A stretch of 62,072 nucleotides of DNA, the filler included. It is 5 parts of 5 records of this genome, joined end to end, with 100 filler letters (N's around TTAATTAATTAA, not from the genome) between each part and the next. Parts side by side here need not be neighbours in the genome. Positions count along the whole stretch, not along the records: positions 21,625 to 37,407 come from DRR723986_9229; 4 more parts are not named here. One strand, written 5' to 3'. Below the pieces are notes generated by a model. The model saw nothing but the letters and a program-made list of their open reading frames with translations. It ran no database searches and was not told where the DNA came from. Positions 15,196-51,667 of the stretch are shown in pieces. The position numbers and the translations under genes were made by a program. Positions within the stretch are counted from its first letter, which is position 1, and the number at the start of each line of letters is the position of its first letter.

Positions 15196-15584
15196 TCAGA
15201 TCTTCCAGCCCGAATGCAGCGCCGCAATGCCCATGGACAGGTTGCGATACTTGACCATGTCGAAGCCTGCCTCGCGGATCATGCTGGCGAACATCTCCTG
15301 ATCGGGGAATTTGCGGATGCTTTCGACAAGGTACTGATAGCTATCCGCATCCCCCGCAATAACCTTGCCCATCTTCGGAATCACGTTGAACGAATAGAGA
15401 TCGTAAAGCTTCTGCATCCCCTCGTTCGGCAATTGGCTGAATTCCAGCACCATGATCCGCCCGCCGGGTTTCAGCACGCGGTAAGCTTCGGACAGGGCAT
15501 CGGGGATGCGCGTCACGTTCCGAATGCCGAAGCTGATCGTGTAGACGTCAAAGCTGTTGTCCTCGAACGGCAGCGCCATGGCGT
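15196..15584 (-). CDS. ubiE: Ubiquinone/menaquinone C-methyltransferase UbiE (5' truncated by contig end)
   Basis: [20 protein letters not shown]...RVLKPGG...[12 protein letters not shown]. Confidence 0.95.
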
Positions 15585-15684
15585 NNNNNNNNNNNNNNNN
15601 NNNNNNNNNNNNNNNNNNNNNNNNNNNNTTAATTAATTAANNNNNNNNNNNNNNNNNNNNNNNNNNNNNNNNNNNNNNNNNNNN
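15585..15684. other. Artificial contig linker
   Basis: N44-TTAATTAATTAA-N44, with stops in all six frames. Confidence 0.98.
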
Positions 15685-15908
15685 ACCCCATATTCCAGCA
15701 ACCGGTCCTTGGCCCAAGCTCCATCCGCACCAACAGCACCGATATGCATCACCCGCGCCGCGGCACGCGCGGCAGCAACAGACATATTTGCGCCTTTGCC
15801 CCCCAGCCCACGGTCAAAGCCGGTCGCGGCGAGGGTCTCCCCCGGTTCGGGCAAATGCGGCACCCGGTAAAAGTTGTCCGCATTGATCGAACCGAGGTTC
15901 CAGATCAT
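15685..15908 (-). CDS. rbsK: Ribokinase (3' truncated)
   Basis: NLGSINAD...PGETL...GGKGANMSVAAAR...IGAVGADG, PfkB signature. Confidence 0.88.
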
Positions 15909-18163: not shown

Positions 18164-18219
18164 GGGATCGGCTCTCTGCTGTTTAGACGAGTCATAGACA
18201 GCAAAGCACGGGCATACAA

Positions 18220-19950
18220 TCAGGTGACGTATTTGACCCATTTATGTGCGGTAACAAAGTTTTCGTGCCGTTCTGGAAAATCGCGTTCGAGCCGCGACAA
18301 AGCCCAGCGTATCACCTGCGGACGTTCGCACCGGTTTGCACACCAGATCATCCGCACCAAAGTCTGCCAACGGCTGCGATCCGCCTTATAGGCCAGATCC
18401 AGCGCCATCAGTTCTGATTTGGGTTCGTCCAGTTCTTTGTGGCAATCCGCCTTTATCAGACAAAGCTCCGCATCGCGGTCCAAAAACTCCGAATGTTGAT
18501 CGATAAGTTCTGCCGCCCTGTCTGGCGCGCCAGCCTGCAAGACACGGGCAGATGTCTCAACCAGAACCGGCAATTGCGTCAACTTTGGATAGTGACCAAG
18601 CAGGGTCACAACAAAGGCCATAATCCCGGCTGTCGCTGCCTCTCCCAAACGGACCGGAACAATCCCATCTTGCTTGAAACTTGGCTCTAACAAGGGGTTT
18701 TCTATGTTGTGATCTGCAAAAAAGCTGATGTATCGACACCGCGCCGCATTCGCCAATGGCCAGAAATCACCCCAGCGAAATTGTGCGGTTTGCAGCGTGC
18801 CCAGCTCAATCACATAGGCATCAGGATTGGCGAACAACATGTTGGTAAATCCCGCTCCGTGATAGGAAATCATCACCTCGGCCTGGGCCATGATCGCCAC
18901 CTGCTCCAGCGGGGACAGGTTTTCAAACACCACATATTCAAAGTCAAACAGCCGCAGATGCTCAAACAGCAGATCCTCGCCCTCCATGTGCCGCGCCCGG
19001 CTTTGGCGATCATCGCGCCCCACAAAGAACCGTTTCGGCAGATGGCTGAAATCTTGCCCCTCGACTGCCGCCAATCCCCGGTTTCGCAGTGCAATCAGCG
19101 GCGAACTGACGCAGTTCATGGCAAGGACCGCCTGACCACTCACATTTGCCAAACCGTCCGCGTCTGCAAACGGTTTTGGCGCATAATCCTCCATTCCACT
19201 GATGCTCTCACGCGGCGCCTGATAGTGCCCGCCCAAAAACTCATAGGTAGATATGACGTTGTCATACTCCTTCGGCGTCCGTTCAAAAAACACCCGCCCC
19301 GCAAGCTCAGGAAACAACGCATCGACAAATGCCTGCGCGAACGGCCTTTGTTTTTCTTCTTGGTTTGGAAAATGGAAATAAACATTTCCCGTGAAATTGA
19401 GCCCATCAAGAACAGTCAATTGTGACAACGACTCTGTGATGAAGTGGTAAAAATTAAACGTGTTCCGGCATTCGATAGCAACGTGTGTATCCGTCTCTAA
19501 CTCAGGCAAAACAGATGGAAGTACACGATTTTTGTTCACATTCTGACAGGCCGCAAGGTAGGTCTGTACCTGATCAACACTGTTTTCCTCCGCCTCTTCG
19601 TTCTCCCAGTGAAACCGGTTGATCAACCGCACACCTGATGCGCCATTGAGCAACATTCGATCATGAACCATGATGTGCGATTTTCGAAAGCTCGCTTGCT
19701 CAAGATAGACCGGGGCGGCGTTGTATTCGATCGCCTTGCTAAAGGTTTTTTGCCGCTTCGTGACCTTCAGAAAGGATCGGATCTTCTTGTTGACCTGCTC
19801 GTGCGCGCTGACGGCGAAACCTTCAATCACCGCCCGCTCTCTGGGCCTCCAGATAAATTCCGGCATGTTCAGCAGAAAAAACCCTGGATCGCTCCAGGGA
19901 TTGTGAAACAAGGTTTCTGGCGGCAACGACAGGTCAATCTTGTTGCGCAC
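18220..19950 (-). CDS. Glycosyltransferase family 61 (DUF563) with TPR-like C-terminus
   Basis: NFYHFITE, RFFVGR, ENLSPLEQVAIMAQAEVMISYHGAGFTNMLFA. Confidence 0.78.
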   Translation of the reverse strand: MRNKIDLSLPPETLFHNPWSDPGFFLLNMPEFIWRPRERAVIEGFAVSAHEQVNKKIRSFLKVTKRQKTFSKAIEYNAAPVYLEQASFRKSHIMVHDRMLLNGASGVRLINRFHWENEEAEENSVDQVQTYLAACQNVNKNRVLPSVLPELETDTHVAIECRNTFNFYHFITESLSQLTVLDGLNFTGNVYFHFPNQEEKQRPFAQAFVDALFPELAGRVFFERTPKEYDNVISTYEFLGGHYQAPRESISGMEDYAPKPFADADGLANVSGQAVLAMNCVSSPLIALRNRGLAAVEGQDFSHLPKRFFVGRDDRQSRARHMEGEDLLFEHLRLFDFEYVVFENLSPLEQVAIMAQAEVMISYHGAGFTNMLFANPDAYVIELGTLQTAQFRWGDFWPLANAARCRYISFFADHNIENPLLEPSFKQDGIVPVRLGEAATAGIMAFVVTLLGHYPKLTQLPVLVETSARVLQAGAPDRAAELIDQHSEFLDRDAELCLIKADCHKELDEPKSELMALDLAYKADRSRWQTLVRMIWCANRCERPQVIRWALSRLERDFPERHENFVTAHKWVKYVT

Positions 19951-20089
19951 GGGCGGCTGGATCTCTCATCAGGTGGTGTTAACCCGATTTTAACACGAAG
20001 AATGCGCCGGTCTAGCAACATCTCTGACGGCCGCCCTCTTTCCTCAGACCGCTTGGTTTTGTACAGACAGGCATGCGGGGGAGAATTCA

Positions 20090-21524
20090 GTGAGCGAAGA
20101 AAAAGTCACGCCGATGATGGCGCAATATCTTGAGCTCAAGGCCGGATATGCCGATGCGCTTTTGTTTTATCGCATGGGTGATTTCTATGAGATGTTCTTT
20201 GATGACGCGGTCGCCGCCGCCGAGGCGCTGGATATCGCCCTCACCAAACGCGGCAAACACGCCGGCAAGGACATTCCGATGTGCGGCGTACCAGTTCATG
20301 CCGCCGAGGGGTATCTGCTTACGCTGATCCGCAAAGGGTTTCGTGTTGCCGTTTGCGAACAAATGGAAAGCCCGGCCGAAGCGAAAAAGCGCGGCTACAA
20401 ATCCGTGGTCAAAAGAGATGTTGTCCGCCTTGTCACCCCCGGCACCCTGACCGAGGAAGCCCTTCTTGAACCACGCCGCCACAACTACCTCGCCGCATTT
20501 GCAGAGGTGCGCGATGCTTCAGCTTTGGCATGGGTCGACATATCCACCGGCGCCTTTCATGTCATGCCACTGGCCACCGTTCGGCTCAGCCCGGAGTTGG
20601 CGCGTCTTTCTCCGTCAGAGTTGATCGTATCTGAGGCGAAAGAGACGGAACTCTCCGATTTAGTCTCTGATTTTGGTCTCGCGCTGACGGGTATCGCACG
20701 ATCTGCATTTGATAGCACAGCCGCGGAAAAACGGATTTGCGATCTGTTTAGCATCGCCACACTTGATGCCTTTGGCGGTTTTTCGAGGGCCGAGATTTCC
20801 GCAATGGGCGCTCTCATCGATTATTTGGAGATAACCCAAAAAGGCAAATTGCCGCTTCTGCGCCCTCCTCAAAAAGAAAGCGAGACACGCAGCGTTCAAA
20901 TTGACGCCGCAACCCGCCGCAATCTCGAACTGACTCACAGCATGACAGGCGGCCGCGCCGGATCGCTTTTGTCGATCATGGATCGCACCTGCACCGCCGG
21001 TGGTGCAAGACTTCTTGAGCGCCGGATCGCAAGTCCATCACGTGCATTAGAGACTGTTATCAAGCGACTTGACGCGATTTCATTCTGCACAGAGCAGCGC
21101 CGGCTGGTACAGGATGTTCGCGATCATTTGCGCAAAGTGCCTGATCTGGATCGCGCCCTTTCGCGCCTTTCTCTTGATCGTGGTGGCCCGCGCGATCTGG
21201 CGGCAATCCGCAATGGGCTCGCCGAGGCGGAGCTTTTGTCAAGCCAACTTGGGTCATCCGAATTGCCCGATCTGTTAGACACCGCTGCCAAAAGCCTGAC
21301 GGGTCATACTGATTTGATCGCACTGCTTGACGCAGCATTGGTGGCAGAGCCGCCGCTATTGGCCCGCGACGGCGGCTTTATTGCCGAAGGTTATAACGAT
21401 GACCTGGATGAATCGCGAAAGCTGCGCGATGAGGGGCGGTCAGTCATTGCAGAAATGCAGCAGAGTTTCGTCTCTGTTACAGGGATTTCGACACTGAAGA
21501 TCAAGCACAACAACGTGCTGGGCT
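20090..21524 (+). CDS. mutS: DNA mismatch repair protein MutS (3' truncated)
   Basis: TPMMAQY, FYRMGDFYEMF, PMCGVP, RLVTPGTL, LKIKHNNVLG. Confidence 0.97.
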
Positions 21525-21624
21525 NNNNNNNNNNNNNNNNNNNNNNNNNNNNNNNNNNNNNNNNNNNNTTAATTAATTAANNNNNNNNNNNNNNNNNNNN
21601 NNNNNNNNNNNNNNNNNNNNNNNN
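21525..21624. other. Artificial contig linker
   Basis: N44-TTAATTAATTAA-N44. Confidence 0.98.
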
Positions 21625-25889: not shown

Positions 25890-27647
25890 ATGACATTTAC
25901 AGGAAAACGCGCACTGAATGCGGTCGGGCTGAGCGCCCTTTTCATGATTTTCACGGGCTCCGCTTTCGCCAATGGCATCGGCTTGCCCGATGAAGAAACG
26001 CTTCAGGCCCAGATGGAGGTCTATAACTCTGACGCACCGGGGTCGATCTACGCGCTGCAGCCCTTCCGCAACGAGATGTCGCTGACCGGTGACAACGGGC
26101 TGGAGATCACGCTGACCTCTATGAACCCGATGGTAAACGCCTGGTTCATCCTGCGTGTGGACAGCGATGACCTGTCTCGCCCGCGCTATTACCATCTTGA
26201 AAACGCCGCGCCTGATTTCTGGCAGATCTCGCTGGAGATGGATGGCGACGATCCGATGATCCTGATCGAGAACGATGGCGACGAGGTGGAATGCGCACCG
26301 TGGGAAGGCCGTAGCCCGGAGCTGGAAGAGGCCCGAGAAGAAACGCTGCCCTACGCCCCGATCTGCGACAGCACGATGTACCTGCGCAACCGCGTGTCGG
26401 GGTCACGGACCACGCGCGAGGCGGTTGCCGAATTCCTGCGCGAAAACGTTCTCTTTGGGGATTCCATCGTCAACCTGATCAAGGGCACCCTGTTCCGCGA
26501 CGCCTATCTTGAAAGCGCGGACGAGTCCGAATCCGAAGACCCCGGCGCAGTCGTCGAAGCGCTCGGTCAGGCCAATCTGGGCCGTTTCCCGGTCATGCGC
26601 GCAGCCCCCGGCTTTGATCTTGTGGGTGCCGAAGGCGGCATGGAGGCGGGCAGCTGGTATCAGGTGGAAGACGCGCCCGGTATCTACGCCAGCATGATGC
26701 AACCCGGCATGATCAGCGACGACATCCTGAACCGATCGGGCGAAACAAACTGGCTGGATGGTGTGGAACGCGGGGCGAATGTCTACCTCGTGGCCTTCGA
26801 CATGCGCGAGTTTGAAATCGGCTATGAGCTTGGCACCGATCACCCCGGGTTCGAATGGTCATCGCGCCCGCACGGGGCAGGCCGCGACTGGTCTATCCCC
26901 GGACCCGATGGCATCAGTTCGCCCGATCCGCTGGTCATGGTGGGGATGCTCAGCCCCTCGCTGACCGACCGGGTCGCCGCGACCTTTACCGGCGGTTACA
27001 AGCGCGATCACGGTGCGTTCCGCTATGGGGATATGGCGACCTTCAACCACGGACATCACTATGGGTTTCTGGTCAACGGCACGGTGCTGAGCCGCCTTTG
27101 GCCGGGGCTCTCGACGATTTACGTCACCAATGACGGCACCTTCGGCATGACCACCTGGTCAGAAGAACTGAACGAGGAACTGCTGCCGCATCTGCGGTTT
27201 GCTCGCCAGAACGGCGTTCCGCTGATCAACCCCGACCCGGAAACCGGTGAAGGCGTGCCCGGAGATCGCGTCACCCAATGGGGCCCTGGCAACTGGTCCG
27301 GGTCCGCGGATGCACAGCTGCGCACCCTGCGCGCCGGGTCGTGCCTGCGAGAGGTCGATGGCCGTCAGTTCCTGATCTACGCCTATTTCTCGACCGCCAC
27401 GCCCTCGGCGATGGCGCGGACGTTCCAAGCCTATCATTGCGACTATGCGATGCTGATGGACATGAACAGCCAGGAACATACCTACATGGCTCTCTACCCC
27501 GAGACCGAGGATGATGACTGGATCGAGGCCGAGCATCTGGTCAGCGGCATGAGCCACGTGGATCAGGACACGCGCAACGGCACGATCCCGCGTTTCGTGG
27601 GCTTCGCTGACAACCGCGATTTCTTCTACCTGCTGAGACGAGAGTAA
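25890..27647 (+). CDS. Secreted hypothetical protein with a phosphodiester glycosidase (NAGPA/DUF2233)-like C-terminal domain
   Basis: Signal peptide ending AFA; AATFTGGYKRDHG, RQNGVPLI, WG..NWSG..RTLRAG, YAMLMDMNS and RDFFYL motifs. The domain call is by eye. Confidence 0.62.
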   Translation: MTFTGKRALNAVGLSALFMIFTGSAFANGIGLPDEETLQAQMEVYNSDAPGSIYALQPFRNEMSLTGDNGLEITLTSMNPMVNAWFILRVDSDDLSRPRYYHLENAAPDFWQISLEMDGDDPMILIENDGDEVECAPWEGRSPELEEAREETLPYAPICDSTMYLRNRVSGSRTTREAVAEFLRENVLFGDSIVNLIKGTLFRDAYLESADESESEDPGAVVEALGQANLGRFPVMRAAPGFDLVGAEGGMEAGSWYQVEDAPGIYASMMQPGMISDDILNRSGETNWLDGVERGANVYLVAFDMREFEIGYELGTDHPGFEWSSRPHGAGRDWSIPGPDGISSPDPLVMVGMLSPSLTDRVAATFTGGYKRDHGAFRYGDMATFNHGHHYGFLVNGTVLSRLWPGLSTIYVTNDGTFGMTTWSEELNEELLPHLRFARQNGVPLINPDPETGEGVPGDRVTQWGPGNWSGSADAQLRTLRAGSCLREVDGRQFLIYAYFSTATPSAMARTFQAYHCDYAMLMDMNSQEHTYMALYPETEDDDWIEAEHLVSGMSHVDQDTRNGTIPRFVGFADNRDFFYLLRRE

Positions 27648-27672
27648 CCCCCAAGCACAAGGAGTGCCCCCT

Positions 27673-28668
27673 ATGAGATATCTCACCCGAACCCTTGTGG
27701 CCCTGATCATTGGCGTCATGGGCGCCGGGGCGGGGGGTGCGCAAAGCCTGCAAGAACTGAACGAACAGATGTTCGATCAGATGCGGCAGGTGCGCGGCGT
27801 GTCCAATGCCGAGATCCAGCGTATCCGGCAGATCTTTGCCGGGTCGTCTTATATCGGGCAAGGCAACCCGGCGGTGACCCGCCATGCGATGACGCCCGAG
27901 GAAGCGGCGGCGCGGATTGGTGGCTCGGTCGCCAGCGTGCAGCAGAGCTATCGCAATGCCAGGTGGGAACGCATCTGCGGCGGCCCCTATCGCGCGCCGC
28001 TCTACGATCCCGCCACCGAAAGCCCCGAGGATGCCGAGGTGTGCGTGGACATGTTCGAGTATCCGAATATCCCCATGGTTTACCCGGTGGTCTGGGTTCG
28101 GGCGAACGAGGCGCATATGCTGTGCGCTGCGGAAGGCGGCCGGATGGGCGATGCCCATGAATGGGAAGGGGCGGCGGCAGGGGCGCTGCTGGAGCCCGAT
28201 TACCGTTTCGATCTGGGCAGTCCGCAGGCCATGCGCGCCTGGCACAATGCGGAATGGGCGCATACGCGCAATACCTATAGCATTGGCCAGTGGCGGTCCG
28301 GGGTCTGCGCGACAGGCAGTTTCAAATCGGCCAGCTGCAATGGCGGCAGTTTCACCGGCTGCGGGTCCAACACTTATCCGGCCGGGTCGTTTCCGCAGTG
28401 CCACAGCCCGCTTGGGGCCTATGACATCGACGGCAATGCGGCCGAGCATATGAACCTGCCGCTGTCACCTGACCAGATGGCCAGCCGCGGGTCCACCACG
28501 CTTGGCGTGACCGAGATGAAGGGCAGCTGGTTCATCTGGGACACGGTCCGCGCGCATGAACATTGGGCCCGTTGGCGGGCGCCGTTCTGGCATGGCAGCC
28601 GGGTGATGTCTCCATCCAGCCATCGGAACTATCACCTTGGGTTCCGATGCTTTTATGACGTCGATTGA
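27673..28668 (+). CDS. Secreted FGE-sulfatase (SUMF1/PvdO, C-type-lectin-like fold) domain protein
   Basis: CVDMFEYPN, PVVWV..EA..LC...GR....HEWEGA, C.SPLGAYDIDGNAAEH, KGSWF, HLGFRC. Confidence 0.8.
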   Translation: MRYLTRTLVALIIGVMGAGAGGAQSLQELNEQMFDQMRQVRGVSNAEIQRIRQIFAGSSYIGQGNPAVTRHAMTPEEAAARIGGSVASVQQSYRNARWERICGGPYRAPLYDPATESPEDAEVCVDMFEYPNIPMVYPVVWVRANEAHMLCAAEGGRMGDAHEWEGAAAGALLEPDYRFDLGSPQAMRAWHNAEWAHTRNTYSIGQWRSGVCATGSFKSASCNGGSFTGCGSNTYPAGSFPQCHSPLGAYDIDGNAAEHMNLPLSPDQMASRGSTTLGVTEMKGSWFIWDTVRAHEHWARWRAPFWHGSRVMSPSSHRNYHLGFRCFYDVD

Positions 28669-28676
28669 GGCGGGGA

Positions 28677-28716
28677 AAATTCCGTGACGGAATTTGGCGA
28701 GGGCGCGCGCCCTCGC
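28677..28716. repeat. Two adjacent perfect palindromes (REP-like)
   Basis: AAATTCCGT-G-ACGGAATTT (28677-28695) and GCGAGGGCGCGCGCCCTCGC (28697-28716). Confidence 0.6.
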
Positions 28717-28745
28717 GCCCGCCCGTTCTCCGCGTCAGTCAAAAT

Positions 28746-28776
28746 AAAAACCCCGTCCGTGTGAGACGGGGTTTTT
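28746..28776. terminator. Bidirectional intrinsic terminator
   Basis: AAAAA-CCCCGTC-loop-GACGGGG-TTTTT between convergent genes. Confidence 0.88.
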
Positions 28777-28798
28777 CGTTACTGTCGGGACATGATCC

Positions 28799-30313
28799 TC
28801 AGCGCGAGGCGATCTGAATTGCAGGCCGTCCGATCGGGCCTTCGGAATTCAGCAAGCCAGCATAGGTGCCATCCATCAGCAAGTCTTGCAGATCGACGGC
28901 GCGGCCATCGACAAAGGCAGTGCGGCTGATCAGGCGGATGCCGTGGCTGTAATCGGCATATTCGGCGCCGTGCACGGTGGACAGCGGCTGGATCGGGTTT
29001 CCGCCGGGACGGTGCCAGCCATAGATCGCCACGCGGCCGGGCGCGCTGGACAGGCGGTTGGTCAGGACAAGATCCTTCTTGTGACCGGAAACCAGCATCC
29101 CAAGGCGGCCGCCCGCATTCTGACGCTGGCCTTCCACGGTGGCATTATGGCGCATGAAATAGGTGGTCGAGGACATCTGCGAGCCCGGCGTCATCGGCGA
29201 GGGCGACAGGCGCAGGTCGGCCTGTGCATAGATCGCGTCGACCATGCGTGTGGTCGGCAGCATCATGTTGAACTCTTCCGCCACCCGCGCAGCGGCGGTC
29301 AGGCCAAGCGGTACGCGCACGAAATCGCTGTCGCTGCCGACGGCCAGATAATCGGGCGTCACGCAAATGGTGATCTGGGCACTACGGCCATTGGGCAGGA
29401 CGCCGTTGAAGGTGACCGGCGCAAGGTCGCGCAGGAAGGCAGGCACATTGCCGCGCAGAATTTCGCGCGCGATGGCCGCATCGCGGGTGGTGCCCGACGC
29501 ATTCTCCAGCGAGGCGATGAAGGCCTGCCCGCCGGCGGCGCTGCCAGCACGGCGCGGGATTTCCCGCGACAGGCGTCGGGTGCAGGCATTGGCGCTGCGG
29601 TCAAAAGCGGGCCCAAGCGCGGCCGGTTCGTCCGGGGTCAGCGCGGCCAGGGTCACGTTTTCGGTCGGGTCGGTGGCACGGGCGACAAGGCTCGGGGCCG
29701 TGGTTACATCCAGATCGGCGGGGCGGACGGCGGGTCGCGGGCTGATGATGGTGGCCAGCGGCGAGGCGACTGCCAGTTCGATCACCGGCTGTTCGGGGGT
29801 CGGATCGAACGGGCGCTGTTCCGGGCGCAAGGCGGCGACATTCGCCGGGTCGCTAAAGCTGCGTGCGGCGGCGGCCAGTGCCACGATATGGGCGGGGCGT
29901 GGCACAGCCTCGACCGGTGGACGGCCAGCGATGATGGTCGGGGCAGGGTCTTGCGGGCGGGTGTCGATGGCGGGATCGGCCAGCACATAATCGCGGCCCG
30001 GTGCCATCGGCGGCAGCGCGGTCGGCATCAACCGTTCCGGCCCCTGATCGGCCCCTGCAATGGTCGCGCCCATGCCGTCGGTCACAGGCAGCGCCCCAAG
30101 GCTTGCCTGCGGGATCTCCACGCGGGCGGGTTCGATGCCAAGCGTGGCAATCCGAACCGCCGGGGCGATCTTGGTGACCGTGAGTGTCAGGATGGTCGCG
30201 CAGACAAGCGCCGAGGCCGCAAGCGTCGTGAGGACGGCTGCGGGCGACTCCATGAACTCAGGTTTGTTGTCAACGGCCCGCTGTCCCAGCAGGTCAAAAT
30301 ATCTGTCCCTCAT
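28799..30313 (-). CDS. Membrane-anchored hypothetical protein with Pro/Ala linker and a motif-rich C-terminal domain
   Basis: N-terminal TM segment; SPRPAVRP-type linker; PDYLAVGSD.DFVRVP, LPTTRMVDAIY, GHKKD, VAIYGWH, IQPLSTVH, YADYSHGIRL. Confidence 0.8.
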   Translation of the reverse strand: MRDRYFDLLGQRAVDNKPEFMESPAAVLTTLAASALVCATILTLTVTKIAPAVRIATLGIEPARVEIPQASLGALPVTDGMGATIAGADQGPERLMPTALPPMAPGRDYVLADPAIDTRPQDPAPTIIAGRPPVEAVPRPAHIVALAAAARSFSDPANVAALRPEQRPFDPTPEQPVIELAVASPLATIISPRPAVRPADLDVTTAPSLVARATDPTENVTLAALTPDEPAALGPAFDRSANACTRRLSREIPRRAGSAAGGQAFIASLENASGTTRDAAIAREILRGNVPAFLRDLAPVTFNGVLPNGRSAQITICVTPDYLAVGSDSDFVRVPLGLTAAARVAEEFNMMLPTTRMVDAIYAQADLRLSPSPMTPGSQMSSTTYFMRHNATVEGQRQNAGGRLGMLVSGHKKDLVLTNRLSSAPGRVAIYGWHRPGGNPIQPLSTVHGAEYADYSHGIRLISRTAFVDGRAVDLQDLLMDGTYAGLLNSEGPIGRPAIQIASR

Positions 30314-30459: not shown

Positions 30460-31194
30460 TCAGATGCTGGTCTTCTTGAAAACCATCTCGGGCACCGCGC
30501 AGATGATCGACATAACAAGCCACCAGATCGGCCGTACGTATATGATATTGCGCCGTTTTTCCACGGCCTTGACGATGGCCGCCGCAACCTCGTCCGGTTC
30601 TGCCGTCAGCCTGGCAGGCAAGTCCAGATGGGCGGTCATGGCAGTGTTCACGAAACCGGGTTTGATCGTCACCACATGTACATTCTGCTTGGCCAAGCGG
30701 TTACGCAGACCCGACAGGAACGCGGTGAAGCCCGCCTTGGCCGATCCGTAGACATAGTTCGACGCCCGCCCACGGTCGCCCGCGACGGAACTGATTCCCA
30801 CCAATGTGCCCGATCCCCGGTTAACAAACCGTTCCGCCAGCACCCCGAAAACGATCGCGGGGCCCTCGAAATTGGATCGCAAGACCGCGACCGCCTTGGC
30901 CGGGTCTTTTTCGTTTTCGTCCTGCTCGCCCATGGTGCCAACGGCACAGATTGCGATGCGGGGCAGGACCGGCAGACCGTCGACGAACGCTTCATGCCCG
31001 TTCACATCAAGCGCGTCGAATTCATGCAAAGTGACCGCGACCCCGTACCGGGTTTCCAGATCGGCTTTCTCCAACTCCATGCTGTCTGCATCGCGGGCGG
31101 CCAGCTGGACGGGGTGGCCGAGCGCTGCGAAGGCACGGGCAGTGGCGCGGGCCATGTCGGACCGGGCGCCGAGGATCAGAACTGGTTGGGTCAC
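30460..31194 (-). CDS. SDR oxidoreductase, DprE2-like
   Basis: ILGARSDMARA, SSVAGDRGRASNYVYGSAKAG, KPGFVNTAMT; GTGA overlap with the upstream gene. Confidence 0.88.
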   Translation of the reverse strand: MTQPVLILGARSDMARATARAFAALGHPVQLAARDADSMELEKADLETRYGVAVTLHEFDALDVNGHEAFVDGLPVLPRIAICAVGTMGEQDENEKDPAKAVAVLRSNFEGPAIVFGVLAERFVNRGSGTLVGISSVAGDRGRASNYVYGSAKAGFTAFLSGLRNRLAKQNVHVVTIKPGFVNTAMTAHLDLPARLTAEPDEVAAAIVKAVEKRRNIIYVRPIWWLVMSIICAVPEMVFKKTSI

Positions 31195-32513
31195 AGGTAG
31201 AGCCTTTCGGATTGGGCCGAGGCGAAGGCGTCGGCAAGGCCGTTCTCCCTCCGCCACTGGGCAAATGCAGCGGCGCGGGGGTCGGCGGTGGCAAAGGTGT
31301 CAGCAGGAACCCGGCTGTCCTTGGCGAGGTAGAAGCGCCCGCCATGATCCAGCGTGATCGCGTCCAGTTCCGGCATCAATGCAATGGCACGGGGATGGCG
31401 GGGAAAATCGAGCGCCAGGGTGTAGCCTTCCATCGGGAAGGAAAACGGACTGTCCTGCGGGCCAAAGCGTTTCAGGACCGACAGGAACGACGCCTGGCCG
31501 GACTCGGAAATCGCTGACATCAGCCGGTGCAACCCTTCGCGCGCAGTGTCTTTCGGCAGGACGCATTGGAACTGCATGAACCCCTTGCGGCCATAAAGCC
31601 GGTTCCATTTCAGGATCGCGTCGAGAGGGTAGAAATAGCCGTCCCAATCGACGATGGACTGCCCCTCCTGCCGCGATCCGTTCCAGAAATAGAGCGCGTT
31701 GAAGGCCCGGACTGAAAGCGGGTTCAGCGCAAAGCCCGGCGCGTTCATCGGGAAGGTTTTCTTGCGGCGGCGGTTTGCTTGAAACGGGGTCGCGCGGAAG
31801 CGGGGCGGCACCTCGCCCGGTTCGATATGTTCCCCCAGCATCACCAGCGACCGGCCAAGCGCGTCGCCCTTGGCGGCGCAGTCGATCCAGGCCACGGAAT
31901 AGGTTGCGGCCATGTTGTCCTCGAACGCGGCAATGGCCTCGTCCAGATTGGCGGCGGGAATCATCGTCTGCCGAATCCAGCCCGATTTGACGGGCCGCAA
32001 CCGGATCGCACAGCGCAGGATGACGCCGGTCAGCCCCATGCCGCCGATGGTCCAGCCGAAAAGTTCCGGGTTTTCATCACGTGAACACCGGGTCACGGAC
32101 CCGTCCGGCCCCATCAGGTCGATCCAGTCCACACAGGCGCGGAAACTGCCGTCGATATGGTGGTTCTTGCCATGCACATCCGCCGCGATGGCGCCGCCCA
32201 GGGTAATCAGCTTGGTGCCCGGCGTGACCATGGGAAACCAGCCGCGCGGCAGGAAACTGTCGATCACATCGGCCAGCATCACGCCCGCCTCGGCCACCAA
32301 TTGCCCGGTCGACACATTGAAGGACAGCATCCGGTCGAAATGGCGCATGTCCAATGTGCGCGCCGCCCCGATGGCGCTGTCGCCGTAGGACCGCCCATTG
32401 CCGCGCGCGATGGCGTGGCCTTGCCTGACTTGCTCGGCCACCTCTGCCTCGGTTCGCGGCGCGGTCAGTTGTGTTGTGCGTTTCGGGAAGTTGCCCCATC
32501 CGGTCAGTTGCAT
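31191..32513 (-). CDS. FAD-binding oxidoreductase, DprE1-like
   Basis: RGNGRSYGD, VTPGTKLITLGGAIAADVHGKNHH, YSVAWID, FMQFQ, GGRFYLAKD; start at MQLTGWG. Confidence 0.9.
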   Translation of the reverse strand: MQLTGWGNFPKRTTQLTAPRTEAEVAEQVRQGHAIARGNGRSYGDSAIGAARTLDMRHFDRMLSFNVSTGQLVAEAGVMLADVIDSFLPRGWFPMVTPGTKLITLGGAIAADVHGKNHHIDGSFRACVDWIDLMGPDGSVTRCSRDENPELFGWTIGGMGLTGVILRCAIRLRPVKSGWIRQTMIPAANLDEAIAAFEDNMAATYSVAWIDCAAKGDALGRSLVMLGEHIEPGEVPPRFRATPFQANRRRKKTFPMNAPGFALNPLSVRAFNALYFWNGSRQEGQSIVDWDGYFYPLDAILKWNRLYGRKGFMQFQCVLPKDTAREGLHRLMSAISESGQASFLSVLKRFGPQDSPFSFPMEGYTLALDFPRHPRAIALMPELDAITLDHGGRFYLAKDSRVPADTFATADPRAAAFAQWRRENGLADAFASAQSERLYL

Positions 32514-32938
32514 CACGCCCCCTCTGCCTGCAAGCGGTCGTCGGTAAAGACGAAGCGGCGATCCAGCATGTATTTGGTCACATAGCCCACCATCAGGCCC
32601 AGAACGGCCCCAAGTTCCCGCATCGCATCGGTGCCCCAGATCAGCCAGAAGGCGGTTTCCGAGCCCCAGAAGATGCAGGTCGTGATCAGCCCCATGGCGG
32701 TATAAAGCGCAAACTTGCGGCTGTGCGCTTTCACGCCGGTGGACTGGTCGAAAAAGATCCAGCGCTTGTCCAGCACGTATTTCACCACCAGCCCCACCAG
32801 GGTTCCTGCGGCCACGGCCAGGGCGAAGATCACGGCGGTTTCGCCAAAGGCCAACACCATCCGTTGGGTTCCAAGATTTGCCACGGTCGCAATCACTGCA
32901 AACAGGGCATAGCGCAGGGCGAGGCTTGTTGTGCTCAT
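32513..32938 (-). CDS. GtrA family lipid-linked sugar flippase
   Basis: Four hydrophobic segments; KYVLDKRWIF and KYMLDRRFVF. Confidence 0.88.
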   Translation of the reverse strand: MSTTSLALRYALFAVIATVANLGTQRMVLAFGETAVIFALAVAAGTLVGLVVKYVLDKRWIFFDQSTGVKAHSRKFALYTAMGLITTCIFWGSETAFWLIWGTDAMRELGAVLGLMVGYVTKYMLDRRFVFTDDRLQAEGA

Positions 32939-34383
32939 AGGAAAAGGGCCCCTGCCGCGAGCGCCAGCATCGCAAGGAAGGTCGCCTGACTGGTGCGGTC
33001 GGTCACTGCGAAGACCATCGGGTCATCGTTCATCTTGCCCCTGTGGGTAACAAAGACCATCCGCGTAACCCAGAACATCAGCAATACACAGACCCCCCAC
33101 AGATAAGTGGGAGACAGATAGTTTTCGCGGATATCGGGCGTATTGATGTAAAGCGCCAGAACCAGCACCGACAAAAGGCCCGAACTGGTGGCGATCTGGG
33201 TGATGATCGGCAGATCCTCCAGCCCGTATCCCCTGCCCACGGCCTTTTCTTGCCCGGTGGATTTCAGATGCACCAGTTCCGCCTGCCGTTTGACGGCGGC
33301 AAGGGAGAAGAAGAAGAACATCGAGAAGGCCAGCAGCCACAGCGACAAGGGAATGCCGGTTGCCACGCCGCCCGCCACGATGCGCAGCGTGTAAAGCCCG
33401 GCCAGCACGCAGATATCGACGATCACCCGGCGCTTGAGCCAGAGCGAATAGCTCATCGTCATCAGGAAATAGAAGAAGATCACGCCAAGGAATTTAAGGC
33501 TGAGCGTGGCGGCGGTGGCGAGGCCTACGGCCAGCAGGATCGGGAACAGCACAGTGCCTTGTGGCACCTGCAATCGGCCCGAGGCCAGCGGGCGGCGGCA
33601 TTTGCGGGCATGCGCCCGGTCGGGACCAAGGTCCAGCAGGTCGTTCAGCACATAGCCGGATGAGGCCACAAGCCCGAATGCCAGAAACGCCAGCAGACAT
33701 TGAAGAAGGCTGGCAGCGCTGACGGAGTGATTGGCCATCACCGGGACGAAGACGAGGATGTTTTTCAGCCATTGATGCAGGCGCATTGCCTTGCTGATCG
33801 GAATCAGCGGATGTTCGGGCGGGCTGATATGCGTGACGTCGGCATTGACTGCGGCCACCTTCGCCCGAAACCCCTTGGTTGCGCCAACGGTCACGGCGGC
33901 TTTGGAGCGCGACCAGACCTTCAGGTCGGCATGGCTGTCGCCGACGTAGATATAACCACCTGGACCATAGTGGTTGTCCAGGAACTCGGCCTTGCGCTCG
34001 GCCTTCAGATTGTTGCCCGGTTCGCTTCCGAACACCTCGTCAAAGAGACCCAGATGTGCGGCGATCCGATCCGCGAGGATCTGGTCTGACGCTGTCACCA
34101 GTGCGGTCTTGCCGCCTTCGGCCCGCCACGCCTCGATATGGGCGATAACCTCGGCGTCGTAGGGCAGACGGGCGATATCGGGGCAGGACGTTTCAGCCAG
34201 CGCGCGTTTCAGCTCGGGGATGCCCTGGGACAGGGCCTTGGCGGCGATGAGCGGCGTGCGCCAGTTGCGCGCGGCACAGGCCCAGAAGCATTCGAACAGC
34301 ATATCCGAACGCAGCAATGTTCCGTCCAGATCGACGACCAGAACGCTGTCTTTGGTGCCGGAATCGCGCATCTTCCCGTTCAT
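32935..34383 (-). CDS. HAD-UbiA fusion, polyprenyl-phosphate phosphoribosyltransferase-like
   Basis: N-terminal VVDLDGTL...VTAS...YVGDS..D; C-terminal RLHQWLKN, YVLNDLLD..DRAH..K..RPLASG, MNDDP. Confidence 0.9.
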   Translation of the reverse strand: MNGKMRDSGTKDSVLVVDLDGTLLRSDMLFECFWACAARNWRTPLIAAKALSQGIPELKRALAETSCPDIARLPYDAEVIAHIEAWRAEGGKTALVTASDQILADRIAAHLGLFDEVFGSEPGNNLKAERKAEFLDNHYGPGGYIYVGDSHADLKVWSRSKAAVTVGATKGFRAKVAAVNADVTHISPPEHPLIPISKAMRLHQWLKNILVFVPVMANHSVSAASLLQCLLAFLAFGLVASSGYVLNDLLDLGPDRAHARKCRRPLASGRLQVPQGTVLFPILLAVGLATAATLSLKFLGVIFFYFLMTMSYSLWLKRRVIVDICVLAGLYTLRIVAGGVATGIPLSLWLLAFSMFFFFSLAAVKRQAELVHLKSTGQEKAVGRGYGLEDLPIITQIATSSGLLSVLVLALYINTPDIRENYLSPTYLWGVCVLLMFWVTRMVFVTHRGKMNDDPMVFAVTDRTSQATFLAMLALAAGALFL

Positions 34384-34596
34384 CTTCCCGGCTTGGGGCT
34401 GCCTTTGCGCACCTTCGCCGTCCTGCTCTGCATTTCGATTAATTTTATAAGGCCCGCGAAAGCTTGCATAGCGTTAAGGCATTGGCCAGCCGTTTCTGTG
34501 GTTTTCTTGGGAAAGGATGGGGCAAGACTGTCGACAGAGGTGGGCGGAATTGGCTAGGGTTTGGCTTGTATTTCAATTACAAACCGGTCTGCTGCC

Positions 34597-35676
34597 ATGA
34601 AAATTTCTCTTTCCTCCGCGCTTCCACGGGTTGCCATGACCCTTGCGCTATCCGTCAGCCCGCTGGCACTTGCCGCCCAAACCGCGTCTGAAACCGCCGC
34701 TGCACTATGCGCCGAGACGGCCGGTGTGCCCAATGCCGGTGTGCCGATCAGCCCAGAGGCGCAAGACGCGTTGGAAGCGGCGTTGGTTGAAGCCGCGCCC
34801 TATTGTGAACAGGCGTTGGAGGAGGGCAGCGAAGATCCGGTCGTGCTGTTCCATATCGGCGCGATCCGGCAGGCCAATGGCGATCATGAAGAGGCCGTGG
34901 CCGCGTTTGAGGCTGCCGCCGCCGCAGGGTTGGCTGCTGCAAATACCAAACTTGGCGATTATCACCTGTTCGGCATCGGTCCCCTGCGCCGCGATGCAGA
35001 CGAGGCTGCCGGCTATTTCGCCGCTGCCGCCGAAGGTGGCGACCCCGCCGGTCAGATGACGCTTGGCCTTTTGCACCGGATCGGCGCGGGCGTGCCGCGT
35101 GATACAGGGCGTATGGTGGAACTGATGCGCGATGCGGCTGATGGCGGCTATCACTTTGCCCAATATCGGCTTGGTCAGACTTATCTGACGGGCGATGGCA
35201 TTCCCGGTGGTGAAGATGCCTCGCTTGGCATTCCTGATCGGGACGAGGCCGCGCGCTATCTGTCGATGGCGGCCGAGCAAGGGAATATCGAGGCGGTGCT
35301 GGATCTCGCACGGATCTATTCCGAACTGGACGGCCCCGGCACCGGCGACGCGGAGCAGCAGTTCCGCTGGACAGAACGCGCGGTCGAGGCTGGTTTGCCC
35401 GATGCGGTGGCGGCGCTCGGCTTTCTTTACGAACGCGGGCGCGGGGTCGAGGCCGATCCGGAACAGGCGGCGGCGCTCTATGTGCAGGCGCTTGAAACCG
35501 GTGACGTGGATATGGACGACCTGCGCGGACGTATCGGCGGGTATGAGCCTCCCTGGGACCGGGCCACGGCAATTGCTTTCCAGGTGATCTTGCAGGACCG
35601 GGGGCTGTATCTCGGCGCGATTGACGGCATCATCGGCCCGATGTCACGGGCGGCTGCGGCGGCGCTGGACGACTAG
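34597..35676 (+). CDS. Secreted Sel1-repeat protein with C-terminal peptidoglycan-binding motif
   Basis: Repeated LG..Y..G.G...D...A...(F/Y)..AA..G units; ends LQDRGLYLGAIDGIIGPMSRAA. Confidence 0.85.
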   Translation: MKISLSSALPRVAMTLALSVSPLALAAQTASETAAALCAETAGVPNAGVPISPEAQDALEAALVEAAPYCEQALEEGSEDPVVLFHIGAIRQANGDHEEAVAAFEAAAAAGLAAANTKLGDYHLFGIGPLRRDADEAAGYFAAAAEGGDPAGQMTLGLLHRIGAGVPRDTGRMVELMRDAADGGYHFAQYRLGQTYLTGDGIPGGEDASLGIPDRDEAARYLSMAAEQGNIEAVLDLARIYSELDGPGTGDAEQQFRWTERAVEAGLPDAVAALGFLYERGRGVEADPEQAAALYVQALETGDVDMDDLRGRIGGYEPPWDRATAIAFQVILQDRGLYLGAIDGIIGPMSRAAAAALDD

Positions 35677-37509: not shown

Positions 37510-38010
37510 GGCAACGACACGACCCGCAATTCCATGACCGGTGGGGTGCTGGCCCTGAACCGGTTCCCTCAGGAGTTCGATCGCCTGAAGCAGGACCCCT
37601 CCCTGATACCGTCCATGGTGTCGGAAATCATCCGCTGGCAAACCCCGTTGGCCTACATGCGCCGGGTTGCGACCCAGGACGTTGAGCTCCGGGGCCAGAC
37701 CATCCGCAAGGGCGACAAAGTGGTGATGTGGTATGCCTCCGGCAACCGGGATGAGCGGGCCATCGAAGACCCGGACCAGTTCCGGATTGACCGGAAAGAC
37801 GCCCGCAAGCATCTGGCCTTTGGCTTCGGGGTGCACCGCTGCATGGGCAACCGGCTGGCGGAGATGCAGCTGCGGATTCTCTGGGAGGAACTGCTCGCCC
37901 GGTTTGACCGGATTGAGGTGGTGGATGAGCCGGAATGCGTGCAGTCCAATTTCGTGCGCGGCTATACCCGTATGAACGTCCGGCTGGGCAAGCGGGATGC
38001 GGCTGGTTAA
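37510..38010 (+). CDS. Cytochrome P450, CYP153-like (5' truncated)
   Basis: GNDTTRNSM, EIIRWQTPLAYMRR, heme motif FGFGVHRCMGNRLAE. Confidence 0.9.
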   Translation, partial: GNDTTRNSMTGGVLALNRFPQEFDRLKQDPSLIPSMVSEIIRWQTPLAYMRRVATQDVELRGQTIRKGDKVVMWYASGNRDERAIEDPDQFRIDRKDARKHLAFGFGVHRCMGNRLAEMQLRILWEELLARFDRIEVVDEPECVQSNFVRGYTRMNVRLGKRDAAG

Positions 38011-51590: not shown

Positions 51591-51667
51591 GCAGACGTAG
51601 CTCAGTTGGTTAGAGCGTCGGATTGTGGCTCCGAAGGTCGGTGGTTCGAATCCACTCGTCTGTACCA
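51591..51667 (+). tRNA. tRNA-His (GUG)
   Basis: Full cloverleaf: acceptor GCAGACG/CGTCTGT, anticodon arm TCGGA-TT-GTG-GC-TCCGA, TTCGAAT loop, encoded CCA. Confidence 0.97.

Follow-up and report, generated by a model that had tools for sequence, protein, structure and literature searches.

A trio of exported proteins that travels with a predicted polyprenyl-phosphate pentofuranose donor synthase in marine Rhodobacterales and in distant bacterial lineages

Here, we describe 3 neighboring genes, termed A, B, and C, in a 62,072-nucleotide stretch of DNA (hereafter, the window) that is of Nioella type, that is, from a marine alphaproteobacterium. The genes encode, respectively, an exported protein with the fold of NAGPA, a predicted exported member of the formylglycine-generating enzyme (FGE) superfamily, and a membrane-anchored protein with a C-terminal domain recognizable by a YADYSHG motif. 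Homologs of the 3 genes recur together in other genomes, both in Rhodobacterales-type bacteria and in distant metagenomic loci, and in most loci of either kind with sufficient sequence they are accompanied by a gene for a HAD-UbiA fusion, a candidate synthase of polyprenyl-phosphate-linked ribofuranose. It is highly probable that the trio functions as a unit and that this unit is tied to a pathway supplying a lipid-linked pentofuranose donor. To the complete proposal, in which the trio is the extracytoplasmic part of a conserved module with the PRP-PPPRS synthase and acts through the steps set out below, we assign a probability of roughly 0.45.

Gene layout and conservation of the module

All 3 genes lie where the initial annotation had placed them (Table 1), with A and B co-oriented on the plus strand across a gap of exactly 25 bp (27648-27672) and C converging on them from the minus strand. 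The hairpin between B and C, with a stem of 13 pairs (6 of them GC), has a T-run after it and an A-run on the other side, and these flanking runs should enable it to terminate transcription in both directions. The GC content at third codon positions is 0.74-0.78 in all 3 open reading frames (ORFs), as in real genes of the window, and each of the encoded proteins has thousands of homologs. Proteins of N. ostreopsis, N. aestuarii, and N. sediminis share 95-96% identity with A, and the gene order in these species is the same. Hydrophobic stretches at residues 8-26 in A, 8-26 in B, and 23-41 in C bear out the suggestion that the products are exported or membrane-anchored, and the dense His, Asp, Lys, and Trp motifs remarked on at the outset correspond to many invariant columns in the homolog alignments.

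To follow the genes through related bacteria, we used alignments of A (A1), B (A3, E ≤ 1e-10), and the C domain (A2) on 201 genomes of the family of Nioella ostreopsis (G001). Each of the 3 matched 22 genomes, and these were the identical 22. A HAD-UbiA match was present in 21 of the 22 ABC-positive genomes versus 68 of the 179 ABC-negative ones (Fisher p 1.2e-7, uncorrected for kinship); given these counts, the trio seems to need the synthase, whereas the synthase does not need the trio. The sole ABC-positive genome without a HAD-UbiA match, G316, is one in which the trio is fragmented (L185, G316:C9:76985-80887): A is split over 2 frames, B is in 2 pieces, C is shortened, and only residues 60-131 of GtrA are left, reflecting either joint decay of the whole module or poor assembly. 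In a 401-genome sample of the phylum, B occurred in 7 genomes, and the 5 new ones all hold A and C as well; a 301-genome sample of the class yielded A in 3 genomes and C in 2. The A homolog of G214 is 39% identical, and neither B nor C was found within the 12.7 kb readable there.

A closer view of the neighborhood came from the best 80 genome loci matched with A, in which every title naming a genus or family is Rhodobacterales-type and the remainder are labeled to class or phylum. B adjoins A on the same strand in 75 of the 76 loci with room for it; of 67 loci, 59 have C next to B in convergent orientation and 5 have it at another place in the locus, and 3 yielded no C. Some form of HAD-UbiA accompanies the trio in 41 of 55 loci with room, 31 of the same 55 have both DprE1 and DprE2, and GtrA occurs in 35 of the 80 loci. 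The upstream side of A is not conserved: A was called in 74 loci, and no cluster of upstream genes recurs in more than 18 of them.

The module extends to distant lineages. In the most stringent test of co-location, metagenome loci were selected solely by their C-like domain, using a query of distant C-like proteins that stand alone (alignment A4) and the pattern Y[AVS]DYSHG[VIL]R; the best 80 of 599 confirmed matches to this one query, spanning GC contents of 0.39-0.77, were analyzed. A B homolog (45-84% identity) is found in 48 of the 65 loci with at least 500 bp of room beyond the C-like gene, which it adjoins, nearly always in convergent orientation. Among the 46 loci with at least 1.8 kb, 35 hold an A homolog (40-79% identity) and 34 hold both A and B. 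Of the 32 loci with at least 4.5 kb, 21 carry HAD-UbiA, mostly in an arrangement in which HAD-UbiA, A, and B follow one another and face C; the fusion gene usually comes immediately before A in the same orientation, with little sequence in between, and is often the first gene of the A-B operon. Other recurrent neighbors are NAD-dependent epimerases (8 loci), phosphoribosyl pyrophosphate (PRPP) synthetase (4 loci), DUF362 proteins (8 loci), and DprE1/E2-like pairs, of which the PRPP synthetase and the epimerases, belonging to the family of the ORF13 xylofuranose epimerase, support a PRPP-based pentose donor. With one distant A protein as query, 3491 relatives were retrieved, the single one with an organism name being from Terriglobales (Acidobacteriota). 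Clusters of 445-491-aa and 356-398-aa "ORFs" in the metagenome loci were set aside as Arg-rich antisense artifacts.

The same gene set appears in several orders. In G494, HAD-UbiA, DprE1, DprE2, C, and a gene A' lie on one strand, with a second A-B pair elsewhere; in G361, C is followed by B and A and then by divergent HAD-UbiA and GtrA; in L141 and L144, B and A flank C on its opposite side; and the order HAD-UbiA, DprE1, DprE2, C is seen in L155 and L164. Inheritance as a frozen block is hard to credit given several gene orders with one gene set. The initial annotation had staked its case on homologs of the 3 genes being co-located in other genomes and on the 3 proteins not each falling into a characterized, unrelated family. 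The homologs do co-locate, in Rhodobacterales-type and distant metagenome loci alike, and none of the 3 proteins belongs to a characterized family, so that this test does not refute the module.

One further exported protein was seen beside the module in L142 (8409-9248; also in L145, L110, and L115). It is 279 aa long and ends in LPKTG, a hydrophobic stretch, and RRR, an LPXTG-like sorting signal, the contig probably being of Acidobacteriota type.

A is a deep branch of the NAGPA fold with a rebuilt substrate loop

The start of A as a 585-aa protein is backed by homologs of 585-586 aa that cover 100% of the query. Its N terminus reads MTFTGKRALNAVGLSALFMIFTGSAFA followed by NG, and the predicted signal peptide (residues 1-27) ends in AFA, directly before NG. 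Beyond it, A consists of a small beta-domain (approximately residues 54-166) with weak structural matches only, a conserved segment modeled with low confidence (166-205), and a NAGPA/DUF2233-fold domain (223-585). No Pfam or NCBIfam profile, PF09992 included, matches A at E ≤ 1, and the homologs that carry names are all labeled hypothetical. The AlphaFold2 (AF2) model of A has a predicted local distance difference test score (pLDDT) of 77.9 and a predicted template modeling score (pTM) of 0.81. Foldseek retrieved 3ohg (E 2.1e-9, probability 1.00) and vertebrate NAGPA structures (E ~5e-7), the matches ranging from 2e-9 to 1e-6. Structure comparison with VIA gave 3ohg (Z 18.7, 248 of 285 residues aligned, root-mean-square deviation [rmsd] 4.1), followed by 5h3k (Z 17.2), 6pkg (14.8), 6u11 (14.5), and 6ozd (14.2), the next, unrelated match scoring 5.7; the Atlas listing likewise pointed to the NAGPA fold. 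The original label of A as NAGPA-like is thus upheld by Foldseek and VIA matches to NAGPA/DUF2233 structures, whose three-subdomain alpha/beta catalytic core the model of A reproduces.

Sequence comparisons reach this relationship at its margins. Against PDB sequences, the A1 profile found only a pyrroloquinoline quinone dehydrogenase (E 0.6), nothing usable. PF09992, with a gathering score of 25 bits, gave sub-threshold matches of 13-20 bits in 4 of 19 distant A homologs, none reaching 25, and 22.9 bits in the A homolog of G214. The kinship with NAGPA is visible at the sequence level only in the most divergent members of the A family. All of the sub-threshold matches stop at profile position 137, which is the Asp of the DGGGS loop. 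According to a 2026 structure paper (PMC13474241), this loop is strictly invariant in NAGPA and holds the sugar-phosphate.

Aligned by hhalign with 7 canonical PF09992 proteins, A1 places D524-M-N-S-Q on LDGGGS. The alignment is collinear, with E 0.015 and a probability of only 3%, and at such a low probability the mapping of the motif rests on hhalign together with the fold matches; a comparison of A1 with a single canonical NAGPA protein was uninformative. The pattern LD[MLI]N[AS] occupies the DGGGS position in all 28 distant A homologs inspected (28/28), and canonical alphaproteobacterial PF09992 proteins read DGG[GP]S. A keeps the Asp of the loop (D524), but without DGGGS, and is a new deep branch of the NAGPA fold with a rebuilt substrate loop. 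The rebuilding fits a change of substrate and a loss of the ancestral activity equally.

Two observations on this fold stand on their own. A distinct and ordinary PF09992 protein (281 aa, 73 bits; G003:C1:4021639-4022070 and G001:C27:16463-16894) is encoded elsewhere in Nioella genomes; its loop reads DGRVS, so that the "invariant" DGGGS varies in bacteria. Furthermore, segment 166-205 of A (26385-26504) is among its best-conserved stretches, with R166, N167, G171, R176, E177, F182-R184, N186, G190, K198, G199, and D204 invariant, yet its AF2 pLDDT is 30-42. By analogy with the NAGPA propeptide, as presented in PMC13474241, this segment could be an interface or could occupy the groove.

B is a member of the FGE superfamily

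B has a predicted signal peptide at residues 1 to ~23 and matches PF03781 over residues 138-291 with 29 bits (E 1.1e-6; gathering score 23.3). The family is matched by all 25 B orthologs examined (25/25; best E 2.9e-9), which secures the earlier description of B as FGE/CLec-like. In searches of the PDB, the single sequence of B had no match among the sequences, and the profile of alignment A3 found the FGE paralog pFGE (1y4j, E 0.00098). The FGE fold of B is accordingly a prediction drawn from the Pfam match. Recognizable in B are the GN..E and LGFRC motifs, together with an invariant His/Trp-rich stretch, RAHEHWARWR. No cysteine occurs in B between C243 and C326, and after K283-G-S-W the protein reads FIWDTVRAHEHWARWR. 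The copper-binding cysteine pair of true FGEs lies just after the GGS motif, in the region corresponding to C243-C326 of B. As B lacks this pair, we consider it a member of the superfamily rather than a formylglycine-generating enzyme.

C carries a conserved domain with a possible lectin-like fold

C has neither a Pfam nor an NCBIfam match, its C-terminal domain included. This domain defines a large family, with 2923 clusters at 50% identity at E ≤ 1e-3 and 929 at E ≤ 1e-30, and has 24 invariant positions, among them the YADYSHG.R motif, with D, H, K, Y, and R represented. Its AF2 model is of high confidence (pLDDT 95.8, pTM 0.93). VIA matched it to the C-terminal domain of Bd2740 (Z 8.5, 107 residues aligned, rmsd 2.3), PvdO (7.6), PorK (7.4), Mtd (7.0), and pFGE (6.8), then to EgtB-type enzymes, and many animal C-type lectin domains scored 4.4-5.4. 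The C-type-lectin/FGE fold class accounts for nearly all of the 50 VIA matches listed, and, given that Z values of 7-8 are often reached by chance, the fold matches of the C domain are moderate but consistent. The best Foldseek match was Mtd (E 0.0097, probability 0.92), with none at E ≤ 0.001. A comparison of B with the C domain by hhalign gave a probability of 0.2%, that is, no detectable sequence kinship. A match of the C domain to LacI among PDB sequences (E 0.013) was taken as chance.

The commonest Atlas labels of C-like clusters are Acidobacteriota and Bacteroidota. The only names obtained for clusters were "hypothetical protein," "N-acetylmuramoyl-L-alanine amidase" (a 1877-aa fusion), and "peptidoglycan-binding protein [Planctomycetota]." We scanned 23 C-like proteins from other lineages, picked for being long or short rather than at random. 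Seven of them bear PG_binding_1 (5 over the cut-off), and 1 each has SH3_3, Amidase_3 accompanied by a weak Peptidase_S11 match, and pentapeptide repeats; 13 show no further domain. Domain fusions seen elsewhere in the family comprise PG_binding_1, SH3_3, PPC, and Amidase_3 modules (P0347, of 1877 aa, P0314, P0301, P0320, P0297, P0333, and P0377). These fusions suggest a cell-wall-associated role for the C-like domain family as a whole.

The adjoining donor operon, neighboring genes, and transcription

The initial annotation had also described the surroundings of the trio. Its placement in an accessory block downstream of tRNA-His is wrong: the sole tRNA of the window, tRNA-His at 51591-51667, is 21 kb off. 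The abutting arabinofuranose-donor operon does exist and is more complete than had been noted, with genes for the HAD-UbiA fusion, GtrA, a DprE1-like protein, and a DprE2-like protein. C runs in the same direction as this minus-strand operon, follows it at a distance of 146 bp, and belongs to it at least as much as to the A-B pair.

The HAD-UbiA fusion matches PRK08238 with 605.9 bits (cut-off 351) and has 9 hydrophobic segments; its scores against decaprenyl-phosphate phosphoribosyltransferase models (146-148 bits) are below the cut-offs. It displays the motifs DLDGT, at D18, and NDLLDLGPD, at N247/D248/D251/D255. According to PMC11127046, the residues matching D18, N247, D248, D251, and D255 were mutated in Citrobacter youngae ORF15, a characterized polyprenyl phosphoribofuranose synthase. 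GtrA matches PF04138 (E 3.9e-11) and the NCBIfam model gtrA_1 (176 bits, cut-off 50). The DprE1-like protein matches the NCBIfam DprE1 equivalog over its full length (385.7 bits, E 3.6e-115), below the cut-off of 500, and the DprE2-like protein scores 197.5 bits with NCBIfam DprE2 (cut-off 250) and 345.8 bits with PRK07102, a short-chain dehydrogenase model (cut-off 267). A single 594-aa DprE1 ORF considered for this stretch was rejected, being GtrA plus the 441-aa DprE1-like gene. On the far side of the operon, the gene for a Sel1-repeat protein is syntenic in Rhodobacterales-type loci only (53 of 55 with room); only 6 of the metagenome loci carry Sel1, and the gene is outside the wider core of the module.

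Table 1. Coordinates of the trio, its donor operon, and other features of the window
Feature	Positions	Strand	Basis
Gene A, 585 aa, exported	25890-27647	+	ORF, ATG 25890, stop 27647
Motif D524-M-N-S-Q of A, at the place of the NAGPA DGGGS loop	27459-27473	+	hhalign
Gene B, 331 aa, exported, FGE-sulfatase-type domain	27673-28668	+	AGGAG before ATG; PF03781
Hairpin, candidate bidirectional intrinsic terminator	28746-28776	between convergent B and C	Stem prediction
Gene C, 504 aa	28799-30313	-	ORF; one hydrophobic segment
C, C-terminal YADYSHG domain, 260 aa	28802-29581	-	Conserved motif ...YADYSHGIRL
C, Pro/Ala-rich linker	Residues 42-244	-	Composition
C, membrane anchor, residues 23-41	30191-30247	-	Hydrophobic segment
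DprE2-like short-chain dehydrogenase, last gene before C	30460-31257	-	adh_short
DprE1-like FAD oxidase	31191-32516	-	FAD_binding_4
GtrA-family small membrane protein, candidate lipid-linked pentose flippase	32516-32938	-	PF04138
HAD(PRP)-UbiA(PPPRS) fusion, candidate polyprenyl-phosphate phosphoribosyltransferase and 5'-phosphatase	32935-34383	-	Pfam, NCBIfam
Sel1/TPR-repeat protein	34561-35676	+	Sel1 Pfam match
ubiE piece, profile positions 108-233 only	15196-15579		
PfkB piece, 91 aa	15636-15908		
Intact malic enzyme-PTA fusion, flanked by fragments	15908-18241		
GT61 glycosyltransferase, flanked by fragments	18223-19950		
MutS with domains I-IV, without ATPase domain	20090-21577		

Within 8-10 kb of the module, no multi-pass membrane ORF besides HAD-UbiA is conserved in either of the 80-locus sets, which indicates that no GT-C glycosyltransferase is encoded near the module. 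In 4 carrier genomes (G001, G002, G003, and G494), no PF13231 (PMT_2) match exceeded the cut-off, PF13231 being the one GT-C family covered by this search.

RNA-library contigs from 2 runs of one transcriptomic sample cover A (25947-27820), and one of them spans the A/B junction; in the same runs, C is represented by a single 1544-nt contig (28721-30264). Contigs of 2 metatranscriptomes, at 90-95% identity, also span the A/B junction. The C contigs end at 28721 and 28768, near the hairpin. Most of B and the donor operon are thinly covered or uncovered by RNA contigs, and we do not read these gaps as silence. Taken together, the contigs are a weak hint that A, the A/B junction, and C are transcribed, as contigs of an RNA library prove neither transcription nor the structure of an operon. 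At their other end, the C contigs stop at 30264-30276, downstream of the ATG at 30313; contig ends are unreliable, and the start of C may be Met21, at 30253.

Proposed mechanism

The initial annotation had envisaged a periplasmic system that binds or modifies a glycan or a phosphodiester-linked polymer. Our results support this reading as the most economical one and, because the PRP-PPPRS synthase gene travels with the trio, sharpen it to polyprenyl-phosphate-linked ribo- or arabinofuranose. NAGPA-fold enzymes cleave the glycosidic bond of a sugar-1-phosphodiester, and polyprenyl-phosphate-ribofuranose (polyprenyl-P-Ribf) and its arabinofuranose counterpart (polyprenyl-P-Araf) are such compounds. 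It is this chemistry, together with the lack of a GT-C in the module, that leads us to take A as the candidate enzyme for removing the pentofuranose from the lipid phosphate.

In the proposed sequence of events, the synthase would make polyprenyl-P-Ribf from PRPP, as its catalytic motifs and the characterized homolog ORF15 suggest. Judging from family membership, the DprE1-like and DprE2-like proteins would then epimerize polyprenyl-P-Ribf to polyprenyl-P-Araf, and GtrA would flip the product to the periplasm. There, A might act on the sugar-1-phosphate bond of the lipid-linked donor, or of a sugar-1-phosphodiester derived from it, and would either transfer the pentofuranose to an acceptor in the envelope or release it onto water. 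B, with its predicted FGE/lectin fold, and C, with its possible lectin fold on a Pro/Ala stalk extending from the inner membrane, may provide binding to the acceptor or the wall or carry out a second chemical step, the fusion of C-like domains elsewhere to peptidoglycan-binding modules being the one observation that speaks for such a role. That A acts directly on the lipid-linked donor is doubtful, at clearly less than even odds. Less likely again is that A founds a new class of extracytoplasmic enzymes, with a NAGPA fold, polyprenyl-P-Ribf/Araf as substrate, and transfer without a GT-C, and with B and C serving recognition and anchoring. If it does, beta-linked pentofuranosides become possible, since NAGPA retains the anomeric configuration, and these are not made by the known inverting GT-C systems. 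There is, in our view, a real if similarly small chance that the system is a new enzymatic solution rather than a variant of extracytoplasmic pentofuranose systems.

Several findings weigh against the proposal as a whole. Without the DGGGS loop, A may have a different ligand or no catalytic activity. In 11 of the 55 Rhodobacterales-type loci with room, the trio has no donor gene beside it, and the 17 of 65 metagenome loci without B and 11 of 46 without A show that the C-like domain also works outside the module. The presence of HAD-UbiA in 68 of 179 trio-negative genomes means that the donor also serves other users, presumably GT-C enzymes, and 2 PF13231 matches of ~22 bits are found at other loci in Nioella genomes. 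Finally, the positive family genomes may be a single clade, in which case the co-occurrence counts would not be independent events, and the metagenome loci, as the top matches to one query, are a non-random set.

Alternative explanations

The main rival holds that a GT-C encoded elsewhere in the genome adds the pentofuranose and that A, B, and C act later, once the polymer is complete; A would cut back or "uncover" a sugar-1-phosphodiester of an envelope glycan, or hydrolyze surplus donor and so recycle polyprenyl phosphate, and B and C would bind or anchor. A GT-C is part of every characterized pentofuranose system (PMC11127046), and NAGPA, as described in PMC13474241, is a hydrolase and not a transferase. 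The additional users implied by the trio-negative carriers of HAD-UbiA and the weak PF13231 matches elsewhere in Nioella point the same way. The lack of a conserved GT-C-like ORF around the module in both locus sets and of a PF13231 match over the cut-off in the 4 carrier genomes argues against it, and the position of the synthase as first gene of the A-B operon in many distant loci fits direct use of the donor better. We regard this alternative as possible, though on balance unlikely.

A second alternative centers on peptidoglycan. Here, C would bind or modify the wall, A would cleave a linkage unit of GlcNAc-1-phosphate type to muramic acid, and the donor would build a secondary polymer, giving a Gram-negative analog of arabinogalactan attachment. 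The PG_binding_1, SH3_3, and Amidase_3 fusions among the 23 C-like proteins are in line with this idea; the stalk of C, ~200 Pro/Ala-rich residues, could reach the wall; and, according to PMC13474241, the NAGPA fold acts on sugar-1-phosphodiesters. The peptidoglycan-centered part of this alternative draws only on the domain fusions of C-like proteins, in a sample chosen by length in which 13 of 23 have no accessory domain, and no peptidoglycan enzyme is conserved in the neighborhood of the module. Nor are these bacteria known to have a wall-linked polymer of this type, and we consider this explanation improbable.

A chance neighborhood, in which unrelated genes are kept together by vertical inheritance of a syntenic block, is largely excluded and very improbable: the possible single-clade origin of the family positives and the synteny of Sel1 (53 of 55), which shows that some local synteny is simply inherited, speak for it, but the linkage is kept at 40-48% (A) and 50-60% (B) identity, across GC contents of 0.39-0.77 and otherwise unrelated flanks, and survives several rearrangements. 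Upstream of A, gene content differs between members of the family itself, and in G316 all genes are fragmented together.

The preferred reading, that the trio works with the lipid-linked pentofuranose donor, ties a donor synthase to 3 exported proteins of no characterized family, a link that marine Rhodobacterales share with bacteria of at least one further phylum (one named relative being from Terriglobales). If the trio uses the lipid-linked donor, it would represent a second, non-GT-C solution to periplasmic glycosylation and would assign functions both to a so far orphan FGE-superfamily branch and to 2 families outside Pfam. The proposal is directly testable, as a farnesyl-phosphate-ribose assay exists and several carrier genera are cultured. 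We found no published description of A, B, or C with PPPRS in a search to which the supplements of PMC11127046 did not belong.

Other features of the window

Two regions of the window outside the module hold apparent gene fragments. At 15196-21580, a run of fragments coincides with a low-GC stretch (0.53-0.57 versus 0.62-0.66 around it) and looks like a rearrangement, an insertion, or an assembly joint (Table 1). At 37534-38010, an ORF of 158 aa aligns with the cytochrome P450 profile at positions 324-435 only and is probably a gene fragment.

Comparison with known systems

Each protein of the trio can be set beside a known family. Like NAGPA/DUF2233 proteins (PF09992), A is exported and shares their fold over residues 223-585, and it keeps the Arg-Thr...Gly strand (R478, T479, G483) and D524. 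It differs from them in having D-[MLI]-N-[AS] in place of DGGGS throughout its family and in adding an N-terminal beta-domain and the conserved 40-residue segment. B passes the threshold of PF03781, the superfamily of FGE, pFGE/SUMF2, PvdO, PorK/GldK, and the EgtB and SenA C-terminal domains, and its profile finds pFGE; unlike true FGEs, it has no cysteine in the C243-C326 region, and an invariant RAHEHWARWR stretch instead. The model of the C domain aligns to bacterial domains of C-type-lectin fold, such as the fiber tip Bd2740 of Bdellovibrio, Mtd of a Bordetella phage, Treponema TvpA, and the C-terminal domain of Legionella Lcl (Z 8.5-6.8), at scores often reached by chance. In contrast to these, the C domain is about twice the size of a lectin domain and no sequence similarity to them was found; its 24 invariant residues are more suggestive of an enzyme than of a variable binding tip.

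As for the donor, the mycobacterial cell wall is the best-known setting of arabinofuranose donors. The operon in the window parallels the mycobacterial decaprenyl-phospho-arabinose pathway in the predicted order of its chemistry, with a PRPP-dependent UbiA enzyme, dephosphorylation, two-step 2'-epimerization, and a candidate GtrA-like flippase. It departs from that pathway in the fusion of the HAD phosphatase, in DprE1 and DprE2 matches that fall below the NCBIfam equivalog cut-offs, in the lack of an Emb- or Aft-type transferase nearby, and in its host, a marine alphaproteobacterium. The mycobacterial parts, as listed in PMC11127046, are Rv3806c, Rv3807c, DprE1, DprE2, Rv3789, and the Emb/Aft GT-Cs.

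The addition of pentofuranoses (ribo-, arabino-, and xylofuranose) outside the cytoplasm has recently been generalized as a three-component scheme of synthase, flippase, and GT-C, in which optional epimerases give xylofuranose or arabinofuranose (PMC11127046). Its prototype is ORF15-ORF14-ORF12 of C. youngae O1/O2, with a GT136 enzyme (Kelly et al., PNAS 2024, PMC11127046). The 2 systems agree in the catalytic residues of the synthase (D18, N247, D248, D251, and D255 in the window), in optional epimerases (DprE1/E2 in the window, NAD-dependent ones in distant loci), in a candidate small flippase (GtrA), and, as predicted for the window, in a donor used outside the cytoplasm. They differ in the type of flippase, GtrA for the candidate in the window and MATE in the prototype, and above all in the third component, which defines the scheme: the module described here is without a GT-C and has instead 3 exported proteins, one of NAGPA fold, one of predicted FGE fold, and one of possible lectin fold.

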